Source: Candidatus Pacearchaeota archaeon
GTDB taxonomy: Archaea; Nanobdellota; Nanobdellia; Pacearchaeales; GW2011-AR1
NCBI GenBank assembly: GCA_018304175.1
Contig: JAGVWT010000002.1
Coordinates: 564 to 64,563, forward strand
DNA length: 64,000 bases
Reading direction: 5' to 3'
Shown here: one piece after another, positions 16,959-24,860 of the stretch
Numbering within the stretch: the stretch's first letter is position 1
Layout of the letters: each line of letters opens with the position of its first letter
Program-made: the position numbers and the translations under genes
Notes under the pieces: model-generated
What the model was told of the DNA's origin: nothing
Databases searched by the model: none
The model's input: only the letters and a program-made list of their open reading frames with translations

Positions 16959-17660
16959 CTAAGTAAATAATTTCTGAAAAAGTTCTTTATTATCAAAAAG
17001 ATGGGTTTTTCCTTTGATTATAAAAATCCGATTATGGCTTTTAAGGTATTTTATTATTTGCTCTGCCATAAACTTATCTCTGAAAGTATTAATCTTCCTT
17101 GTTGCTTCATTAGTTATATTATAATTTAAAGAAGAATTGAAATAATTCCCATATATGTTGTCTAAGATAAAATCTTTGTCAAATGTTTCTAGAAAAATTC
17201 TTTTAAAATTTGAAGAAGTATAATCATAATTTTCCCATTGTGAGTTTTCTTCAAATTCTTTTAAAACAATTTTCATTTTTTCTTCAGAAGATAAAGGCAA
17301 GTCTTTCCTCAATAAAGAGTCTAAGTTTCTTAAAAAAAAATAGAGAAAAGCAAGATCTTTTCCATAAATATTTTCAATAAATTTTATACATTCTTTCTCT
17401 GAAGGGTCATTTGGCAACAATAAAATTTTCTTTTTTTTAGCAAAATAAGAAACAAAACCCATTTCCCAACCCCTTGAAATTGCATCGTCTTCACTCAGAA
17501 ATTCCGCATTTTCGTAACCTCCTTCAATTAATATAACATCGGGCCTCATTTTTTCTAATTTGCTTCTTATTAAATCAATTTGGAATAAATCAGTGCTGTG
17601 GGAAACTCCAATAAAAATTATTTCTTTGCCATTTTTCTCAAATCTTTCTACAAGAACCAT
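16959..17660 (-). CDS. TraB/PrgY/TIKI-superfamily protein (putative peptidase)
   Basis: IIFIGVSHSTD...RPDVILIEGGYEN...IIKGKTHLF parallels the TraB signatures GTAHVS / PDxVxVE / GxGH. I prefer the ATG at 17660 (2 nt after the upstream stop) over the listed TTG at 17681. Confidence 0.5.
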   Translation of the reverse strand: MVLVERFEKNGKEIIFIGVSHSTDLFQIDLIRSKLEKMRPDVILIEGGYENAEFLSEDDAISRGWEMGFVSYFAKKKKILLLPNDPSEKECIKFIENIYGKDLAFLYFFLRNLDSLLRKDLPLSSEEKMKIVLKEFEENSQWENYDYTSSNFKRIFLETFDKDFILDNIYGNYFNSSLNYNITNEATRKINTFRDKFMAEQIIKYLKSHNRIFIIKGKTHLFDNKELFQKLFT

Positions 17661-17662
17661 TT

Positions 17663-17869
17663 TTAACTCGATTTTGACCAATTATCCCAATTTCCCCATT
17701 TATCCCATTCAGTATTATTCCAATCTACATCCTCCCAATGAAGATATCCTTCATTTCCATCTGAAGAATAACTTCCTTCAGATTTTCTTTGGAAAGAATA
17801 AGTGCTTTCAGCTACCCTTTCAATTAATTCCTCTTTTTCAAGTATTTTATCAATGAGGGATCTTATCAT
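17663..17869 (-). CDS. Trp-rich small peptide, candidate RiPP precursor
   Basis: 68 aa. Helical N-terminal half, C-terminal HWEDVDWNNTEWDKWGNWDNWSKSS (six W-x-D/N/K triplets). The ATG lies 1 nt after the rSAM stop, and its own stop lies 2 nt before the next ATG. Confidence 0.55.
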   Translation of the reverse strand: MIRSLIDKILEKEELIERVAESTYSFQRKSEGSYSSDGNEGYLHWEDVDWNNTEWDKWGNWDNWSKSS

Positions 17870-17870
17870 T

Positions 17871-18976
17871 TTAAACCAATTCTAAAATGGCATCTGTAAG
17901 AGCCATTTTGGTATTCCTGCAATATTGAGTCTCACTAGTATTTATATTTTTGTGTTCAAAATATTTGTTACTTGCTTGTCCACCTCCACAAACGGAGTAA
18001 TAAGGGCACTCTTCTCGACATTGTCTAACTCCTTTAATAAAATCTTGTACATAGTAACTTTTGATTCCCCTCTCCAATATCAAACGTAATGGTTCTTCTA
18101 ATATATTTCCTACAGAAAAATTATAATTTTTATCTCCAGAAATATCTGCAAATTCAGGGGAAAGTAATATTACTTCTCCTGAAGAACTTATTGTTGGAAT
18201 AAGTTCCACTTCCAAAGGAAGCATTTCATTCTTTATAGTTTCTTTATTTTTACAAATAAAATCCATTCTTCTAAACAATCTATCAAATTCTCTTACTCTT
18301 ACTGAAGGACTATCTCTCCAAGCCACATATAATTGCCTCCAAAATTCTTTAACCTTTTCTGTTGATTTAACACCTCCCAAATTTACCCCCTCTTTTTCTT
18401 CTATATTGATACATAAACTTTTACATCCTGTGTCTTGAGCAAATTCGTAAATTTCAGTAGCACTATCAAGAGAATCTTCTGAAACAACAGCTATAATTGA
18501 AAAAGGAATATTATAATCAGACAAATATTCAATTCCTTTTAAAATTCTAAAATATGTCTGAAAGCCATGAAGATCTTTTCTTTTTGAATTTAATTCAGGA
18601 GGACCATCAACACTTACTCCAACCTTGAAGTTATAATTTTTGAATAGTTCACACCATGCCTCATTTATTAAGGTAGCATTAGTTTGGATATTATGTTGAA
18701 CTTTCGATTCTAACCCTTTCTTAGAAAAAGGAAGTATAATTTTATCAAAATGTTTAATTCCTGTAGCTAAGGGTTCTCCCCGTGCCAAATCACAGGTACC
18801 TTATTCAATATATGCTCACCTATATAATCAGCCAAATTTTCTGTAACTTGTCCAGGCATTTTTCTTTTTACATCTCTAAGCGGAAGATAACAATATTCAC
18901 AATCAAGGTTACAAAAAGTAGTGGGCTGCAAAACAAACATGCTCAACCTAAATCTAGGATCATTTAAGTTATCCAT
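17871..18976 (-). pseudogene. radical SAM / SPASM-domain peptide-maturase-like enzyme, interrupted by a 1-nt frameshift (possibly a sequencing error)
   Basis: N-terminal CNLDCEYC (CxxxCxxC). ...VIWHG then shifts frame within the G run (C4 at 18778..18781 on +), and adding one G restores WHGGEPLATG. The C-terminal CREECPYYSVCGGG...ETQYC is SPASM/anSME-like. Confidence 0.75.
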
Positions 18977-19054
18977 ACAAATGCCATCCTAAAATTCTTT
19001 ATAACATTTATGGTTTTAAAAAATATTTATAAAGTTCTTTTCATATTTCCTTAA

Positions 19055-19966
19055 ATGAATAAACGCGGAATTAGTATCGTAATTGGTTACGTGCTTTTAA
19101 TCGCAATGGTTCTTGTCATCGGAGGTTTTGTTTACTCATGGTTGAGCACGTTTGTTCCGACAGAGCAACTTGAATGCAGCGACGGAGTTGGAATGTATAT
19201 TAACAGTTACACTTACAACTGCGACACAGATGAATTAGTCCTGAATTTAAGAAACAACGGGCGTTTTGGTGTCGCAGGTTATTACATACGAGGTACTGAG
19301 TCTCAAACAGAGACGCTCCCGATAACAGACCTCTCTGAATACGAAGAAACAGATGACTTTTTCGAAGGGGCTGTTTTATTCCAAGGATTCGGCGACAACA
19401 ACTTGAAACCAAATTCAAAAATCAAAAACACATTTGACTTTTCATCTGCTCCTTTTTCGCAGATTTACAAAATTCAATTAATCCCATTAAGAAGCGAAGT
19501 AATCAACGACAAAAAAACTTTATTGAGTTGTACTAATGCAGAGATTCTCACAGAAGTGAGCTGTTACGCGGTTGGCAGCAACGGGATTTTAAGTGCAAGT
19601 TACTCAAATTTGTGCAAAAACTGCGGAACACAGCCAGACTTTACTGGAACATCATGTTCACCAGGTGCTGATTGGTGGTATTATGAATCAACATTAAGAG
19701 AAACAGGTGGTTCTGTTGGATTGACAATCGAAGAAAGACAGAAGTGTTTTGTACACCAAAATCCAGAAGATGATTATTGTGGAGATATAAAAACAGATAT
19801 TGAAGGAGATTATGGAACAAATGAGATTAGTGCGGGAGGAGTAATAAATGCAGATGATTTTTGGGTTTGTACAGACCAAGCAACAATGACTGTAACAGAA
19901 ACATTTTGGGGTGTTGATGACAATGGAAAAGATGTTGAAGATAGTTATACATTTACTGTTAGTTAG
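19055..19966 (+). CDS. archaeal type IV pilin-like (class III signal peptide) protein
   Basis: N-terminus MNKRGISIVIGYVLLIAMVLVIGGFVY fits the archaeal prepilin motif (K/R-G followed by a hydrophobic helix). The C-terminal region is Cys-rich and unassigned. Confidence 0.55.
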   Translation: MNKRGISIVIGYVLLIAMVLVIGGFVYSWLSTFVPTEQLECSDGVGMYINSYTYNCDTDELVLNLRNNGRFGVAGYYIRGTESQTETLPITDLSEYEETDDFFEGAVLFQGFGDNNLKPNSKIKNTFDFSSAPFSQIYKIQLIPLRSEVINDKKTLLSCTNAEILTEVSCYAVGSNGILSASYSNLCKNCGTQPDFTGTSCSPGADWWYYESTLRETGGSVGLTIEERQKCFVHQNPEDDYCGDIKTDIEGDYGTNEISAGGVINADDFWVCTDQATMTVTETFWGVDDNGKDVEDSYTFTVS

Positions 19967-19969
19967 CGT

Positions 19970-20671
19970 TTAAAATACTTTTATAACTATTGAGGTAATA
20001 TCATCTTTTTTTCCACCGAAATATTTTCCTTTTGATTTTTTAGTGAAAGGAGATTCCCTTTTTTTATCAAGTGAGAAAACATGGGCCTTTTCAACTAGAA
20101 TTTTGGCGACATCACCTTGTTTATTCATCTCTTCTATAATTTCTCTATCAAAAATATTATCAAACAATCCATCTGTTGCGATTAGGATGATATCTCCCTT
20201 ATTTAGTTTTATCCTTGTTTTTTCACAATCTTCAGGAGTATTTTTTACAGATTTTCCATTATATTTTCCTATTTGATACGGATAATTAAAATCAAAAACT
20301 TGCTCTTTAGATGAATAATACACTTTATTATTTCTTATGATTTTGAATCCAGAATCTCCCAAGTGGATTATATCTAAAATATTATTTTCTATTTTTCCCA
20401 TACACAATGTTGTACTTCCATCAGAAAACACATCTTCATAGGACATTTTTAATAAATCAACTGGCGTGATATCTCTTCTACTATCAGCAATTTTTTTGCA
20501 GTTTTGCATTAGTTCATTTGGAAAAATGCTTGGATCTATACCTTTTGATTTCCATCCTCCAACTCCATCGGCTACTCCAAAAATATTTTTATTTTGTGAA
20601 ATAAAATAAGCATCCTCTGATTTCTCTTTTTTTGGGTGCTTTAATCCACAAGCAAAGACTTCTATCTGCAT
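19970..20671 (-). CDS. PP2C-family Ser/Thr protein phosphatase
   Basis: GVADGVGGW, DGSTTLCMG, LGDSGF, IATDGLFDN and DDITSIVIKV, which are the canonical PPM motifs. Confidence 0.9.
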   Translation of the reverse strand: MQIEVFACGLKHPKKEKSEDAYFISQNKNIFGVADGVGGWKSKGIDPSIFPNELMQNCKKIADSRRDITPVDLLKMSYEDVFSDGSTTLCMGKIENNILDIIHLGDSGFKIIRNNKVYYSSKEQVFDFNYPYQIGKYNGKSVKNTPEDCEKTRIKLNKGDIILIATDGLFDNIFDREIIEEMNKQGDVAKILVEKAHVFSLDKKRESPFTKKSKGKYFGGKKDDITSIVIKVF

Positions 20672-20687
20672 ATAAACTTCAAAATAA

Positions 20688-20700
20688 TAAAATTTAAAAA
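20688..20700. promoter_or_regulatory. candidate shared TATA-like box of a 50-nt divergent promoter
   Basis: aaaatttaaaaa lies ~24-27 nt from both the ATG at 20671 (-) and the ATG at 20722 (+). This is consistent with leaderless archaeal transcripts. Inference only. Confidence 0.3.
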
Positions 20701-20721
20701 GTGTGCTATTTTTGATTAGTT

Positions 20722-20907
20722 ATGGGAGAAAGCCTTGAAACAAATCTGAGAGATCCTACGGAGACTGTTTTGTCTAGGGCAAAGGAAAAAAGAAAGGTGT
20801 ATTTAAATGGAACGGACTATTCAACAAGTCCAAGCAGTCCGGTAAGCCCTCCAACCCCTTATAGCCCGCCTAGCCCTCCAGATTCTTATGATACTAGAGA
20901 TTCTTAG
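20722..20907 (+). CDS. small Ser/Pro-rich protein
   Basis: 61 aa ending ...STSPSSPVSPPTPYSPPSPPDSYDTRDS. Locally GC-richer codons. Sits between the PP2C and the kinase-like gene. Confidence 0.4.
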   Translation: MGESLETNLRDPTETVLSRAKEKRKVYLNGTDYSTSPSSPVSPPTPYSPPSPPDSYDTRDS

Positions 20908-20919
20908 AAATTCTGCAAA

Positions 20920-21792
20920 ATGAAAGATGAATTTTCAGAAATAGTTAAAGATATTCTTAATAAAGATAAAAATATCAGTGTTTTAGAAAAATTATCAAAA
21001 ACAAAAAATCCGTGTTATATAATTCAAGATTCCGAAGGAAATAAGTATTTTTTAAAAATATCAAATCATGAGGATTGTATCCAAAGAGAAATTAGGGCAA
21101 TAGAATTTTATTCAAGAAACAATCTTGCAAACATAGTAAAAATAACCTCATATAATCGTAATAGTTTGGTTACTTTTTATGAAGATGGATTAGAAGAGTT
21201 AGATCATGTTGAAATGATTAGGGAATTATCTAGTTTTCATCAAAGATCACTGAATCATCATAACTTCGAAGAATTCAGCAATGATAAAATATTCCAGCAT
21301 GAAACTAGGGATAAGGCTATTAAAAGAACTAAAAAATATGAGAATATAATCTCTGAAATAGGAAATCCGATAGAATTCAGAAGTTTTCTTTTAACTATGT
21401 CGCCAGAAGATTTTAAGATCTTCCCAAGAATTCTTTGCCATGGCGATCCACATAAATGGAATATCATGAGAAGAGCTGATGGCTCTACAATATTCTTAGA
21501 CGAGGAATTTGCAGCCTACACTGAACCAACATTTGATATTGCAAGGAGTATTGTCTCGGGTAATCCCGAAGATTTATACTCTTCGATCGGGCTTTATATT
21601 GAATTTATGAAAGAAACTCCAATGATGAAACATGGAGAATCAACTCTTACTAGAGCCATACTCTATGATGTTGTCTCTCAATCTATTAGCAGGGTTTTGT
21701 CATATAGAAAAAGACATCAAAATGATGATTTGGCTAAAAAGCAAATAAATAAAATAAAGAGTTTGATGGATTATATATTTGATAGTAAATAA
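20920..21792 (+). CDS. protein-kinase-like fold phosphotransferase (APH/choline-kinase family)
   Basis: YFLKIS (beta-3 Lys), catalytic loop LCHGDPHKWNIM, metal-binding FLDEEF. Confidence 0.7.
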   Translation: MKDEFSEIVKDILNKDKNISVLEKLSKTKNPCYIIQDSEGNKYFLKISNHEDCIQREIRAIEFYSRNNLANIVKITSYNRNSLVTFYEDGLEELDHVEMIRELSSFHQRSLNHHNFEEFSNDKIFQHETRDKAIKRTKKYENIISEIGNPIEFRSFLLTMSPEDFKIFPRILCHGDPHKWNIMRRADGSTIFLDEEFAAYTEPTFDIARSIVSGNPEDLYSSIGLYIEFMKETPMMKHGESTLTRAILYDVVSQSISRVLSYRKRHQNDDLAKKQINKIKSLMDYIFDSK

Positions 21793-21843: not shown

Positions 21844-22461
21844 ATGCTTCAAGATATAAAAAATCTAATAAAAAACAAGAATGTTATTTTATTTGGAGAA
21901 TTTCATGGAACAAAAGAAATCCCAGAAATGCTTTCGCAATTTTTCTCTGAAATGGCAAAAGATGAAAATTTCAATATGTGTTTAGAGATTCCAGAAGAGT
22001 TTCAAAATTTAGAGCCGGATAAGATTCTTTCACATGCCAAAGAAGCCGATACAAGCGGGTTGATTAGTAAAGAGTATATTAAATTACTTAAGGATATTCC
22101 AAGAAATATAAAAGTGTTTTTTATTGCTCCAAATTTTATAAAAAATCAGGAAGATGTTGAAAATGGGCTAGCAAATAATATTCTAAAAATTCTTGATGAT
22201 AAAAAAACATTTGTAATTTTAGGCAATATCCATGCTTCTAAAACCCCGATAAATCTTGGTAATTTTAAAATTATAACTGCTGGAACCATATTAAATCAAG
22301 AGTTAAAGAATAAATTGTTTAGTATAAATATCTCACCAAAAAAAGGCAAATTTTATAATTTTGGTGTTAAAGAAATAAAGGATAGTGATGATATAAATTT
22401 TAATAAGGGTTTTGATTATGTTTTAAGAATAGATAGGGTCAGTCCTTGCTCGCTTTTATAA
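21844..22461 (+). CDS. ChaN/TIKI-superfamily protein
   Basis: The N-terminal VILFGEFHGTKEIPEML resembles the ChaN GE-H signature. Same superfamily as the TraB-like ORF at 16959. Confidence 0.45.
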   Translation: MLQDIKNLIKNKNVILFGEFHGTKEIPEMLSQFFSEMAKDENFNMCLEIPEEFQNLEPDKILSHAKEADTSGLISKEYIKLLKDIPRNIKVFFIAPNFIKNQEDVENGLANNILKILDDKKTFVILGNIHASKTPINLGNFKIITAGTILNQELKNKLFSINISPKKGKFYNFGVKEIKDSDDINFNKGFDYVLRIDRVSPCSLL

Positions 22462-22928: not shown

Positions 22929-23198
22929 ATGGTTAAAATAACTACAACCAAGATAAGTTCGAAAGGACAAATAGTAATACCTTCAAGCATGAGAAAGGAT
23001 TTAAGAAAGGGTGAAGAGCTGATTATAATAAAAGATGATGAAAGATTTATCATTAAGAAAGTAAATAATTTAACTAAAAACATAAGAGAAGACCTTGAGT
23101 TCGCAAGAAAAACAGAAGAAGCATGGAAAAGAATAGAAGAAGGAAAGGGTACGAGGATGAACTTTGACGATTTTATCAATGAAATGAAAAAATGGTAG
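22929..23198 (+). CDS. AbrB/SpoVT-family antitoxin
   Basis: N-terminal TKISSKGQIVIPSSMRKDL, the swapped-hairpin AbrB/MazE motif. Overlaps the toxin gene by 7 nt. Confidence 0.8.
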   Translation: MVKITTTKISSKGQIVIPSSMRKDLRKGEELIIIKDDERFIIKKVNNLTKNIREDLEFARKTEEAWKRIEEGKGTRMNFDDFINEMKKW

Positions 23199-23437
23199 GT
23201 ATTGTCTTCGATAAAAAATTCAAAGAGACTTTTTCTAAAATTAAGGATGAGTTATTAAAACAAAAAATTATAAAACAAATAGAAAAAATAAAAACTAATC
23301 CAAAAGCCGGGAAACCAATGAGATATACAAGAAAAGGAACAAGAGAATTATACATCAAACCATTTAGACTTTCTTATGCTTACTCAATTAATGATACAAT
23401 TTATATTTTAGATTTGTACCATAAAAAGAAACAGTAA
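23192..23437 (+). CDS. RelE/ParE-family toxin
   Basis: 81 aa. GKPMRYTRKGTRELYIKPFRLSYAYSINDTIYILDLYHKK is a RelE-like layout. Confidence 0.72.
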   Translation: MVGIVFDKKFKETFSKIKDELLKQKIIKQIEKIKTNPKAGKPMRYTRKGTRELYIKPFRLSYAYSINDTIYILDLYHKKKQ

Positions 23438-23729: not shown

Positions 23730-24860
23730 TTACTGCGAAACTGTTTTTTCCAAAGAAGGAACAATTTCAAATTCGTTTGATGCTCTGTATTCATTGTTGA
23801 TTTTCCAGACTGCCTTGTAATTTCCATAACCACCTTTTTCAACGAAGAAAGGAAGGAGTGGAAATCGCTGTGTTGTTTGGTTGCAAGTGTGATTTGGGAG
23901 ATAATTTCCAAATTCATTGTTTTCCTTGTGAATGTGGTCTATGTGAAAAAATTGCGTTGCAGTATTAAATGAATTAATTCTCATACTAATAAAATCACCA
24001 CCATAACAAGTCTCTGCTTTGTAGATTACTTCTCCTCTAGGAGAATAAACTTCAAGGTCAATAGTTCCTTTTACTATTCCTCTATTTGAAGCTTCTTTAA
24101 AAAGTAACCTAAATTCTTCATCTTCTTTGAATGTATTTTTAATGCCGACATTTTCATTAGGCCCAGTTCTCCCATCATTGTTGAAATCCCTGTTATAATT
24201 ATATGCGAAAGCGTAAGATTTATCCGCCGCTAACCATAATCTGCTATTTCTAAATTCTTCATCGACTAAACCTTGTTGGAAATTTGTTGGATTTGTTGTT
24301 CGTTGATTTTGTGTTGTAGTGTTTGTATTCAAACTTGCTGTTTGTTGTGCTTGTTGTGTTTGATTATAATTTCTTACACTTTCATTCAAACTTGCTATTT
24401 GTTGTGCTTGTTGTGTTTGATTATAATTTCTTACACTTTCATTCAAACTTGCTATTTGTTGCTGGTTGTTATTTGAATTATCGTTAATAGTAACTTCTGT
24501 TTCTGCCGACCTTGTGGTTAATCCGTAGTTAGTTAAATTTTCTCCGAGTATTGCAGCTCCTGGCGCCATTCTTTGTCTTTGAGGATTTCCACTTTGTGCT
24601 GCGTTTTGTGCTGCGGCGCCGAGTAAACTTCCTAAAAGAACATATTCTAATCCTGGCTCATTTTCAATTGTTTCACACGCAACCAGACTTGTAGACAAAA
24701 TTCCTGCTGCCACGATGTTTCTGACTTTTCTTCCCAAATCCATAAGATACAGAAGATTGTCGGCTTTTAAAATTTTTGGTAGCTTGAGGTTTTGATGTTG
24801 CCCATTAAAAAATTGTCTCTGAGACATTTTACTTGTTTTCCCAGAATAAATCTGTGACAA
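23730..24860 (-). CDS. putative lipoprotein with 19-aa tandem repeats
   Basis: Lipobox LSTSLVAC after the MDLGRKVRN n-region. A TATA-like ttttaaaa lies ~30 nt upstream, so the likely true start is the ATG at 24743. Repeats are QQIASLNESVRNYNQTQQA x2.4. Confidence 0.55.
   Translation of the reverse strand: MSQIYSGKTSKMSQRQFFNGQHQNLKLPKILKADNLLYLMDLGRKVRNIVAAGILSTSLVACETIENEPGLEYVLLGSLLGAAAQNAAQSGNPQRQRMAPGAAILGENLTNYGLTTRSAETEVTINDNSNNNQQQIASLNESVRNYNQTQQAQQIASLNESVRNYNQTQQAQQTASLNTNTTTQNQRTTNPTNFQQGLVDEEFRNSRLWLAADKSYAFAYNYNRDFNNDGRTGPNENVGIKNTFKEDEEFRLLFKEASNRGIVKGTIDLEVYSPRGEVIYKAETCYGGDFISMRINSFNTATQFFHIDHIHKENNEFGNYLPNHTCNQTTQRFPLLPFFVEKGGYGNYKAVWKINNEYRASNEFEIVPSLEKTVSQ
24327..24465. 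repeat. 57-nt tandem repeat, ~2.4 copies, in-frame inside the CDS
   Basis: attcaaacttgct(g/a)tttgttgtgcttgttgtgtttgattataatttcttacactttc is repeated head-to-tail at 24327, 24384 and 24441 (partial). Confidence 0.9.

Follow-up and report, generated by a model that had tools for sequence, protein, structure and literature searches.

A probable triceptide-type biosynthetic operon in a Candidatus Pacearchaeota genome

Archaeal peptides that are made ribosomally and modified post-translationally (RiPPs) have barely been explored, and the only experimentally validated examples are haloarchaeal lanthipeptides. In this study, a stretch of 64,000 nucleotides from the genome of the DPANN archaeon Candidatus Pacearchaeota archaeon J4407 (NCBI assembly GCA_018304175.1, contig JAGVWT010000002.1; hereafter the window, with a G+C content of 32.7%) was analyzed, in which three close-packed genes on the minus strand fill positions 16959-18976 and encode a radical S-adenosylmethionine (rSAM) enzyme, a 68-aa peptide and a 233-aa Tiki/TraB-like protein. 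These genes probably constitute a three-gene biosynthetic operon for a triceptide-type RiPP, that is, a peptide with three-residue cyclophanes. The family placement of the enzyme, the conservation of the precursor and of the gene order, and the conserved residues were observed directly.

The DPANN-type host and the arrangement of the three genes had been proposed in an initial annotation of the sequence; the former agrees with the NCBI record and the latter was read directly from the junctions, which are TAA-a-ATG between the rSAM and peptide genes (1 nt between them) and TAA-aa-ATG between the peptide gene and the third gene (2 nt between them), the ATG of the latter lying at 17660. The operon is flanked by a divergent gene on one side and by a convergent gene on the other.

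The precursor peptide and the radical-SAM enzyme

The second gene (17663-17869) encodes 68 residues ending in HWEDVDWNNTEWDKWGNWDNWSKSS and contains six Trp residues (W45, W50, W55, W58, W61 and W64) within residues 45-66, each of which heads a W-x-(D/N/K) triplet (WED, WNN, WDK, WGN, WDN and WSK). Trp accounts for 0.73% of the residues in the long open reading frames (ORFs) of the window, and the probability of finding at least six Trp residues in a given 25-aa stretch is 2.3e-8; the C-terminus of the peptide is the sole stretch of such Trp density among ~38,000 six-frame segments of 25 aa. Triceptides are defined by aromatic1-X2-X3 motifs that are cross-linked by enzymes related to the anaerobic sulfatase-maturating enzyme (anSME) (PMC11499958; PMC12912966).

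A search of 5.8 billion proteins returned no sequence homologue of the peptide beyond itself, and relatives were therefore sought via the neighboring genes. The closest relatives of the rSAM enzyme, P0003 (63% identity) and P0004 (51%), are located on archaeal-looking contigs with a Pus10/TruB gene and what looks like an archaeal histone gene, and each is followed by a small ORF 5-8 nt downstream (MVTHPIINKILQKEDAVRDAA...SWDDFPSPWSDWSQWDQAWNDFTNTDW and MTDYIIRKLLEKREKIEEAA...EWRDWGDWSQWDQVWDKFNNTDW, respectively). On a 1.2-kb TARA contig (L173), which was reached from the neighborhood of a homologue of the third gene, the end of an AmcB-like rSAM gene (present there as a C-terminal fragment) is followed by a peptide with eight consecutive W-x-x motifs (MNKTIDEKIKEKEKLIEKAL...DWKQWNQWDNWSDWAKWTDWGKWNNIV) and then by the TraB-like gene, which is the three-gene order that the initial annotation had proposed to look for in relatives. 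A W-x-x peptide is thus found directly 3' of the rSAM gene in the window, in L001, in L002-L004 and in L173, i.e. beside 3/3 of the related rSAM genes found; conservation of the small ORF next to homologues had been named beforehand as a point on which the proposal could fall.

The four peptides (that of the window and three homologues) share a similar leader helix and are 29-31% identical, with W55, W58, W61 and W64 invariant. The leader consensus LxxKILxKxxxVE is common to the peptides 3' of AmcB-like genes from archaea, the candidate phyla radiation (CPR), Bacteroidota and Verrucomicrobiota. Bacterial AmcB-like genes are likewise followed by aromatic-x-x peptides, such as ...NWNKGWGKYGKT in CPR, ...SWDNGWGNYGKT in Chitinophagaceae and ...WDKRGRNWDNRSDWDNWDKKK in Nocardiopsis, and peptides from Micromonosporaceae and Nocardiopsis match the AmcA models NF041721-NF041723 ('multiple cyclophane-containing RiPP AmcA'). 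The early description of a peptide with a leader-like N-terminal half and repeated triplets holds, and the sequence-based refuting checks named in the initial annotation (the grouping of the enzyme and the conservation of the small ORF) favored its core reading.

The rSAM gene is split into a 69-aa ORF (18767-18976) and a 305-aa ORF (17871-18788). Insertion of one G into the G4 run at 18778-18781 yields a continuous 368-aa protein reading ...VIWHGGEPLATG..., with ...VIWHGGEPLATGIK... spanning the frameshift junction, and restores WHGGEPL, a motif that is present in every homologue; P0003 and P0004 are intact at this site. In the repaired protein, residues 22-29 are CNLDCEYC and residues 320-353 span CREECPYYSVCGGG...YC. 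Its best curated NCBI model is NF041718, to which it aligns end to end with 425.7 bits against a cutoff of 425; the title of this model is 'cyclophane-forming radical SAM peptide maturase AmcB', and the name omits 'SPASM'. The AmcB cutoff is also exceeded by the relatives P0003 (431.8 bits), P0005, P0009 and P0035. The second-best hidden Markov model (HMM) is that of GrrM/OscB (292 bits; cutoff 310), followed by the anSME model TIGR03942 with less than half of its cutoff (158.7 bits; 349.45), DynA (140; 450), YhhB (111; 445), DarW (94; 650), FxsB (92; 370), the DarE model NF038005 (85.2; 650) and XyeB (68; 450). The comparison with sulfatase maturases called for by the initial annotation thus favored AmcB and then GrrM/OscB, and, since AmcB scores best and anSME reaches 159 of 349 bits, the enzyme does not group firmly with the sulfatase maturases.

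In the sequence databases, 1,037 relatives were found at E <= 1e-20, and identity to actinobacterial AmcB is ~41-43%. A profile scan of genome contigs with the rSAM alignment gave 80 best loci that were all bacterial (CPR, Micromonosporaceae and cyanobacteria), with neither an archaeal genome representative nor the genome of the window itself among them, and a scan of metagenome contigs with the three-sequence archaeal rSAM alignment gave nothing closer than 46% identity. Among solved structures, its sequence is nearest to those of anSME (4K36/4K37) and of ChlB, a triceptide synthase (9GM3). The AlphaFold2 model of the repaired enzyme has a mean predicted local distance difference test (pLDDT) score of 90.5, and full-length Foldseek comparison gave template modeling (TM) scores of 0.77 to anSME and 0.75-0.78 to ChlB.

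Eight Cys residues are invariant in 17 AmcB-like sequences: C22, C26 and C29 of the SAM cluster, C109 in the core, and C320, C324, C330 and C353. The last four align on the Aux-II ligands of anSME, and the Aux-I cysteines have no counterpart; furthermore, Pfam SPASM (PF13186) does not match the protein and the seven-Cys two-cluster motif is not present. The C-terminal domain is therefore read as a reduced relative of SPASM with room for one auxiliary cluster. Of the initial 'rSAM with a SPASM-like C-terminus', the rSAM assignment stands, as does the terminal CREECPYYSVCGGG...YC pattern; a full SPASM domain does not.

By analogy with characterized systems, the following pathway can be proposed, in which the chemistry of cross-linking, the cleavage and any bioactivity are inferred. 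The helical N-terminal leader of the precursor would dock on the AmcB-family enzyme, which would cleave SAM reductively, and the 5'-deoxyadenosyl radical would abstract the C-beta hydrogen of residue 3 in each W-x-x motif. The resulting C-beta radical would attack the indole of residue 1, with a change of -2 Da per ring, to give up to six strained rings (at WED, WNN, WDK, WGN, WDN and WSK). The co-transcribed, cytosolic Tiki/TraB-like hydrolase would then most likely remove the leader, probably just before W45; in every characterized triceptide the cut lies before the first motif (PMC12912966).

The Tiki/TraB-like protein and its neighborhoods

The third gene product was initially labeled a member of the TraB/PrgY superfamily. 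The resemblance is real; formal membership by Pfam is not reached, with 19.0 bits to PF01963 (TraB_PrgY_gumN) against a gathering score of 26.8 and a sub-threshold match to PF04187 (ChaN). An exhaustive HMMER search gave 450 homologues, 20 of them at E <= 1e-30. In an alignment of 40 sequences, H21 is kept in 39/40, E46 in 38/40, E66 in 35/40 and H220 in 39/40, and G18-x-x-H21, R194-D195 and G217-x-x-H220 are also kept in 35-40 of the 40. A 2His/2Glu arrangement (GxxH...E...E...GxxH) forms the hydrolase site of the TIKI family, which includes the endopeptidases Tiki and RRSP and the Ere esterases (PMC6254334), and H21, E46, E66 and H220 of the 233-aa protein correspond to it. Weak PF01963 matches occur in 10/40 homologues, the distant relative P0254 passes the threshold with 27.0 bits, and another distant relative aligns to nearly the whole model. 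The AlphaFold2 model (pLDDT 96.5) gave weak Foldseek matches, namely to EreC (6xcs; E = 7e-3, probability 0.92, TM 0.32) and to 7w5z_E (E = 1.5e-3, TM 0.45), and a sequence search of the PDB with the protein found nothing significant. The protein is therefore called Tiki/TraB-like here and not a Pfam member, because the Pfam matches are sub-threshold and the PDB fold matches are weak. It has no signal peptide or membrane segment.

The gene neighborhoods of seven TraB-like homologues (L173-L178/L179 and L180) were inspected. In L173 the TraB-like gene is 57% identical to that of the window and lies behind the W-x-x precursor and the rSAM end described above; ...GSWNNTEWAKWGDFGKFSNVT in L174, ...SWNDYSDWSNFDNWSNWPNS in L175 and ...SWNNYSDWSNFSNWGNWPH in L178/L179 are encoded directly upstream of the TraB-like gene. 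In L176 and L177 no aromatic-x-x peptide was found beside the TraB-like gene, and the contig of L180 begins at that gene. Overall, four further loci have the TraB-like gene 3' of an aromatic-x-x peptide, and the rSAM genes that accompany it are of two clades: in L175, L178/L179 and L180 the next gene after it belongs to a second rSAM clade. The second-clade enzyme (411 aa in L178/L179, where it is complete, contains a full SPASM motif and is extended at its N-terminus) reaches no curated cutoff, scoring 110 bits against AmcB. In this second type of cluster on archaeal contigs, the order in L178 (1872-4844) is the precursor ...SWNNYSDWSNFSNWGNWPH, the TraB-like protein, the 411-aa full-SPASM rSAM enzyme and a 224-aa HEVMH protein. 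No TraB-like homologue was present in ~160 fetched bacterial rSAM loci. The TraB-like protein thus appears to go with the peptide class in small archaeal genomes and not with one enzyme clade.

In L001 (6387-7376, minus strand) and L002 (2470-3474, minus strand) a convergent gene right after the precursor encodes a protein of ~330 aa with an HExxH motif (HELTH and HEFSH, respectively). These two proteins are homologous (24% identity, E = 4e-28), have no Pfam or NCBIfam match and are candidates for an alternative leader peptidase. The HExxH protein of L178 shows no detectable relation to those of L001 and L002, and neither type is present in the window. As L001 and L002 have an HExxH protein instead of the TraB-like protein and L178 has both, it does not follow that the TraB-like protein is the leader peptidase; this role is its simplest reading, not the only one. 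For CPR graspetide loci in which SPASM enzymes also occur, Tiki/TraB proteins and zincins have been predicted to act as peptidases (Makarova et al., 2022; PMC8939145), and a 2023 review of RiPP leader proteases makes no mention of the Tiki/TraB superfamily (PMC10885120).

A broader proposal, put forward tentatively and with distinctly less than even confidence, is that the compact Tiki/TraB-like family may be a dedicated maturation partner (a leader or follower protease, or a self-protection factor) of aromatic-x-x peptides in DPANN archaea. It would travel with the precursor and not with the rSAM clade, which is AmcB-like in the window and L173 and of an unclassified full-SPASM kind in L175 and L178-L180. 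Such peptides would be the first triceptides from archaea, and their hydrolases a new class of enzyme for RiPP processing; episymbiotic archaea might direct the products at hosts or competitors.

The window also contains a 205-aa Tiki/ChaN-like ORF (21844-22461, plus strand) with a GEFHG motif and a weak PF04187 match. BLASTP detected no similarity between it and the 233-aa protein, and the two are therefore not recent paralogues. A 56%-identical homologue of this ORF occurs in L002 (5024-6841), where its neighbors encode an MvdD-like ATP-grasp ligase and a peptide of 74 aa, in a graspetide-like set on the same contig as the AmcB-like cluster; no ATP-grasp homologue was found in the window.

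Alternative readings of the locus

Several observations weigh against the assignment to a triceptide-type operon. The AmcB cutoff is cleared by a mere 0.7 bit, and only in the frame-repaired form, and the relative P0004 falls slightly under it (419.0 bits). The AmcA models NF041721, NF041722 and NF041723 do not match the peptides of the window, L001 and L002 even at E <= 10; the operon contains no exporter or immunity gene; and literature searches found no open paper characterizing AmcA/AmcB. To these can be added the missing Aux-I cysteines, the sub-threshold Pfam and weak Foldseek matches of the third protein, the HExxH protein in its place in L001 and L002 and alongside it in L178, and the frameshift. 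The split into 69 and 305 aa recurs in the ENA, JGI and Logan assemblies, the DNA of which is 100% identical over 2.6 kb; since it is identical in three assemblies from different sources, the 1-nt deletion is a property of this population or lineage and not a slip of one assembly. The rSAM enzyme may consequently be dead in this lineage and, given the fixed deletion, the pathway has probably been inactivated recently unless the frameshift is bypassed. Programmed frameshifting was rejected as the default explanation: there is no X XXY YYZ slippery heptamer at the site, a +1 slip on GGGG meets a stop after seven codons, and the RNA in the 96 nt 3' of the site folds no better than shuffled sequences (z = -0.23). 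That the whole cluster is a decaying remnant, with an rSAM pseudogene and no cyclophane peptide made, was accordingly given a chance only a little short of even; it is compatible with the assignment to the triceptide kind and concerns the state of the cluster only, the peptide and TraB-like genes being intact because inactivation would be recent. The deletion cuts the CX3CX2C segment off from the rest of the enzyme, and the NCBI annotation holds only the 305-aa fragment. However, no second lesion occurs in the 305-codon downstream frame, the two genes downstream are undamaged, re-reading of a single G (-1) would give exactly WHGGEPL, and the three assemblies apparently all sample one clonal population.

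The other alternatives concern function. The third gene product might be no leader peptidase at all; in the style of PrgY/TraB it might break down, sequester or limit the peptide of its own cell, for self-protection or to shut off a signal, or it might be an esterase-type tailoring enzyme, and this is considered unlikely, if far from negligible. Enterococcal PrgY and TraB lower the level of endogenous pheromone peptide. The separate HExxH proteins of L178/L179 could be the real leader protease there, a TraB-like gene is missing from L001 and L002, and esterases (Ere) as well as non-proteolytic members such as ChaN belong to the TIKI superfamily (PMC6254334). Nevertheless, the protein has no membrane anchor, unlike membrane-bound PrgY, its gene is tightly coupled right behind the precursor, as is typical of maturation genes, and the window operon contains no other protease. 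It is very improbable that the rSAM enzyme is an anaerobic sulfatase maturase, or has some other non-RiPP role, with the Trp-rich ORF encoding an unrelated small protein or being spurious. In favor of this reading, anSME is the solved structure that matches best in both sequence and fold, and the enzymes that form three-residue cyclophanes have ancestry and catalytic residues in common with it. Against it, the anSME score is low and the Aux-I cysteines are absent, the peptide ORF is conserved in position and motif across four loci at 29-31% identity, and its Trp density is far above chance. Similarly, there is next to no likelihood that the locus makes a darobactin-like daropeptide, with an ether plus C-C bicyclic core and a place among BamA-targeting compounds. 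The idea arose in the initial annotation from the C-terminal N-W-S-K-S, which is identical to residues 2-6 of darobactin, and W-S-K is indeed the same kind of three-residue Trp-to-Lys motif as the second darobactin ring. It is contradicted by the DarE, DarW and DynA scores given above, by the absence of DarBCD-type transporter genes, and by the three homologous archaeal precursors, in which the SKS tail is not kept. Daropeptides require an aromatic1-X2-aromatic3 motif (PMC12912966), whereas the window core has no W-x-W, its Trp residues being spaced by 3 or 5 residues. Furthermore, NWSK also occurs in unrelated bacterial W-repeat precursors beside GrrM-like enzymes (...TWNNWSKNS...; L099 and L105), as befits the initial caution that a five-residue match can arise by chance. 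Because the core lacks W-x-W and NWSK recurs in bacterial precursors, the NWSKS likeness is, judged by sequence, a chance match that carries no weight, and W-S-K simply adds to the aromatic-x-x motifs, its third residue being basic.

Low-GC bacterial GrrM-like rSAM loci (L096, L098-L101, L105 and L121) have upstream signal-peptide precursors with long runs of W-N/T-x, e.g. NWNTWNTWSNWNTWNNWNTWNTWHTW; two of these precursors contain NWSK, and darobactin-like pentamers therefore arise easily in such repeats.

Surroundings, significance and comparison with known systems

Features of the operon in the window (positions in the 64,000-nt stretch).
Feature	Position	Strand	Basis or remark
AmcB-type radical-SAM peptide maturase gene, with 1-nt deletion inside	17871-18976	-	ORFs, frame repair, NF041718 match, fold
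Precursor, leader part (~residues 1-44)	17738-17869	-	helix motif L-I-D-K-I-L-E-K-E-E-L-I-E; leader/core boundary inferred
Precursor, core (residues 45-68 = WEDVDWNNTEWDKWGNWDNWSKSS), then stop	17663-17737	-	six W-x-x, presumed cyclophane sites
Tiki/TraB-like hydrolase, 233 aa, putative peptidase	16959-17660	-	sub-threshold PF01963/PF04187, conserved residues, neighborhoods
Frameshift site, G4 run in ...TGG CAC GGGG AGA ACC C...	18778-18781	-	one G more gives W-H-G-G-E-P-L
78-nt A+T-rich intergenic region 5' of the rSAM start, common to the divergent gene	18977-19054	-	sequence reading

The NCBI entries are MBS3070776 for the peptide (locus tag J4407_00535), MBS3070777 for the 305-aa rSAM fragment and MBS3070775 for the third protein (J4407_00530). 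The intergenic region upstream of the rSAM gene contains the TATA-like boxes TTTATAAATA (19024-19033) and TTATAAAG (18997-19004), which may act as promoter elements. A scan for sigma-70 promoters and terminators gave no enrichment; it uses a bacterial promoter model that is not applicable to an archaeon. The divergent gene (19055-19966, plus strand) encodes 303 aa with a hydrophobic N-terminal segment and a weak DUF7266 match, and is followed at 19970-21792 by genes for a PP2C-type phosphatase and an APH-family kinase; no link to the RiPP cluster was seen for any of these. Further along, two short ORFs that overlap (89 and 81 aa; 22929-23437, plus strand) may form a toxin-antitoxin pair, as the first, which begins MVKITTTKISSKGQIVIPSSMRK, resembles an AbrB/SpoVT-type antitoxin by eye. 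A 376-aa ORF (23730-24860, minus strand) with no Pfam match contains tandem copies of ...QQIASLNESVRNYNQTQQAQQ... and is weakly similar (40% over 37 aa) to a putative lipoprotein of 268 aa encoded on L002.

The novelty implied by the initial annotation has to be narrowed. The triceptide class is already known, with ~3,900 predicted pathways (PMC11499958), and AmcA/AmcB is a curated NCBIfam system. New are the DPANN host, a subfamily of precursors that the AmcA models do not cover, and a Tiki/TraB-like partner that recurs; among triceptide-type sets, that of the window is a rare archaeal example, and its accessory gene is unusual. The literature search gave no open paper on cyclophane RiPPs of archaea, and earlier bioinformatic sightings in the triceptide landscape literature are possible; one paper notes six archaeal sequences in the cluster of WprB, an rSAM family whose members link Trp to Arg. 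In a 2025 survey, the rSAM RiPPs listed for archaea are ranthipeptides and sactipeptides, and neither 'cyclophane' nor 'triceptide' occurs in its text (PMC12144867). If the chemistry were confirmed, an AmcB-type cluster in a genome-reduced Pacearchaeota would extend triceptides to the archaea and would show that modified peptides are an investment made even by minimal episymbionts. The Tiki/TraB-like partner that recurs is the more useful by-product: if it cleaves these leaders, it would be a new type of protease for RiPP engineering; a darobactin-like antibiotic lead is unsupported.

Among known systems, AmcA/AmcB, found mainly in Micromonosporaceae and also in other Actinomycetota, resembles the window locus in the cutoff reached, the set of Cys residues and the position of the precursor immediately downstream, as well as in a core with several aromatic-x-x motifs (e.g. 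the Nocardiopsis ...WDKRGRNWDNRSDWDNWDKKK). The window locus differs in its archaeal host, its other leader, the lack of a match to the AmcA models, the six near-contiguous Trp triplets, the attached Tiki/TraB-like gene and the frameshifted rSAM gene. The characterized triceptide synthases (OscB/GrrM, XncB, ChlB, HtkB, HaaB and MicB) are likewise anSME-related rSAM enzymes, whose targets are aromatic1-X2-X3 motifs in a precursor with a leader (PMC11499958; PMC12912966); by comparison, the C-terminal domain of the window enzyme has cysteines for only one auxiliary cluster. In the GrrM-like loci inspected the precursor lies upstream, whereas it lies downstream in the window, the enzyme of which is below the GrrM cutoff of 310. 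With anSMEcpe (PDB 4K36-4K39), the best structural match (TM 0.77), the window enzyme shares the rSAM core and the Aux-II-equivalent cysteines; it differs in lacking the Aux-I cysteines, in an HMM score under half of the cutoff and in a RiPP precursor context instead of a sulfatase. Darobactin and dynobactin (DarA-DarE and DynA) are made by enzymes of the same superfamily, and the Trp3-Ser4-Lys5 ring of darobactin is a three-residue Trp-to-C-beta cyclophane of which the W-S-K sequence is present in the window core; nevertheless, that core has no W-x-W ether motif and no transporter operon accompanies it. The third protein shares two GxxH motifs and conserved Glu residues with the TIKI/TraB/PrgY/GumN/ChaN/erythromycin-esterase superfamily, as well as the occurrence in RiPP loci of ultra-small prokaryotes. 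It differs in being sub-threshold in Pfam, compact (233 aa) and unanchored, and it accompanies an rSAM enzyme and a W-x-x precursor rather than an ATP-grasp enzyme as in the CPR graspetide loci.

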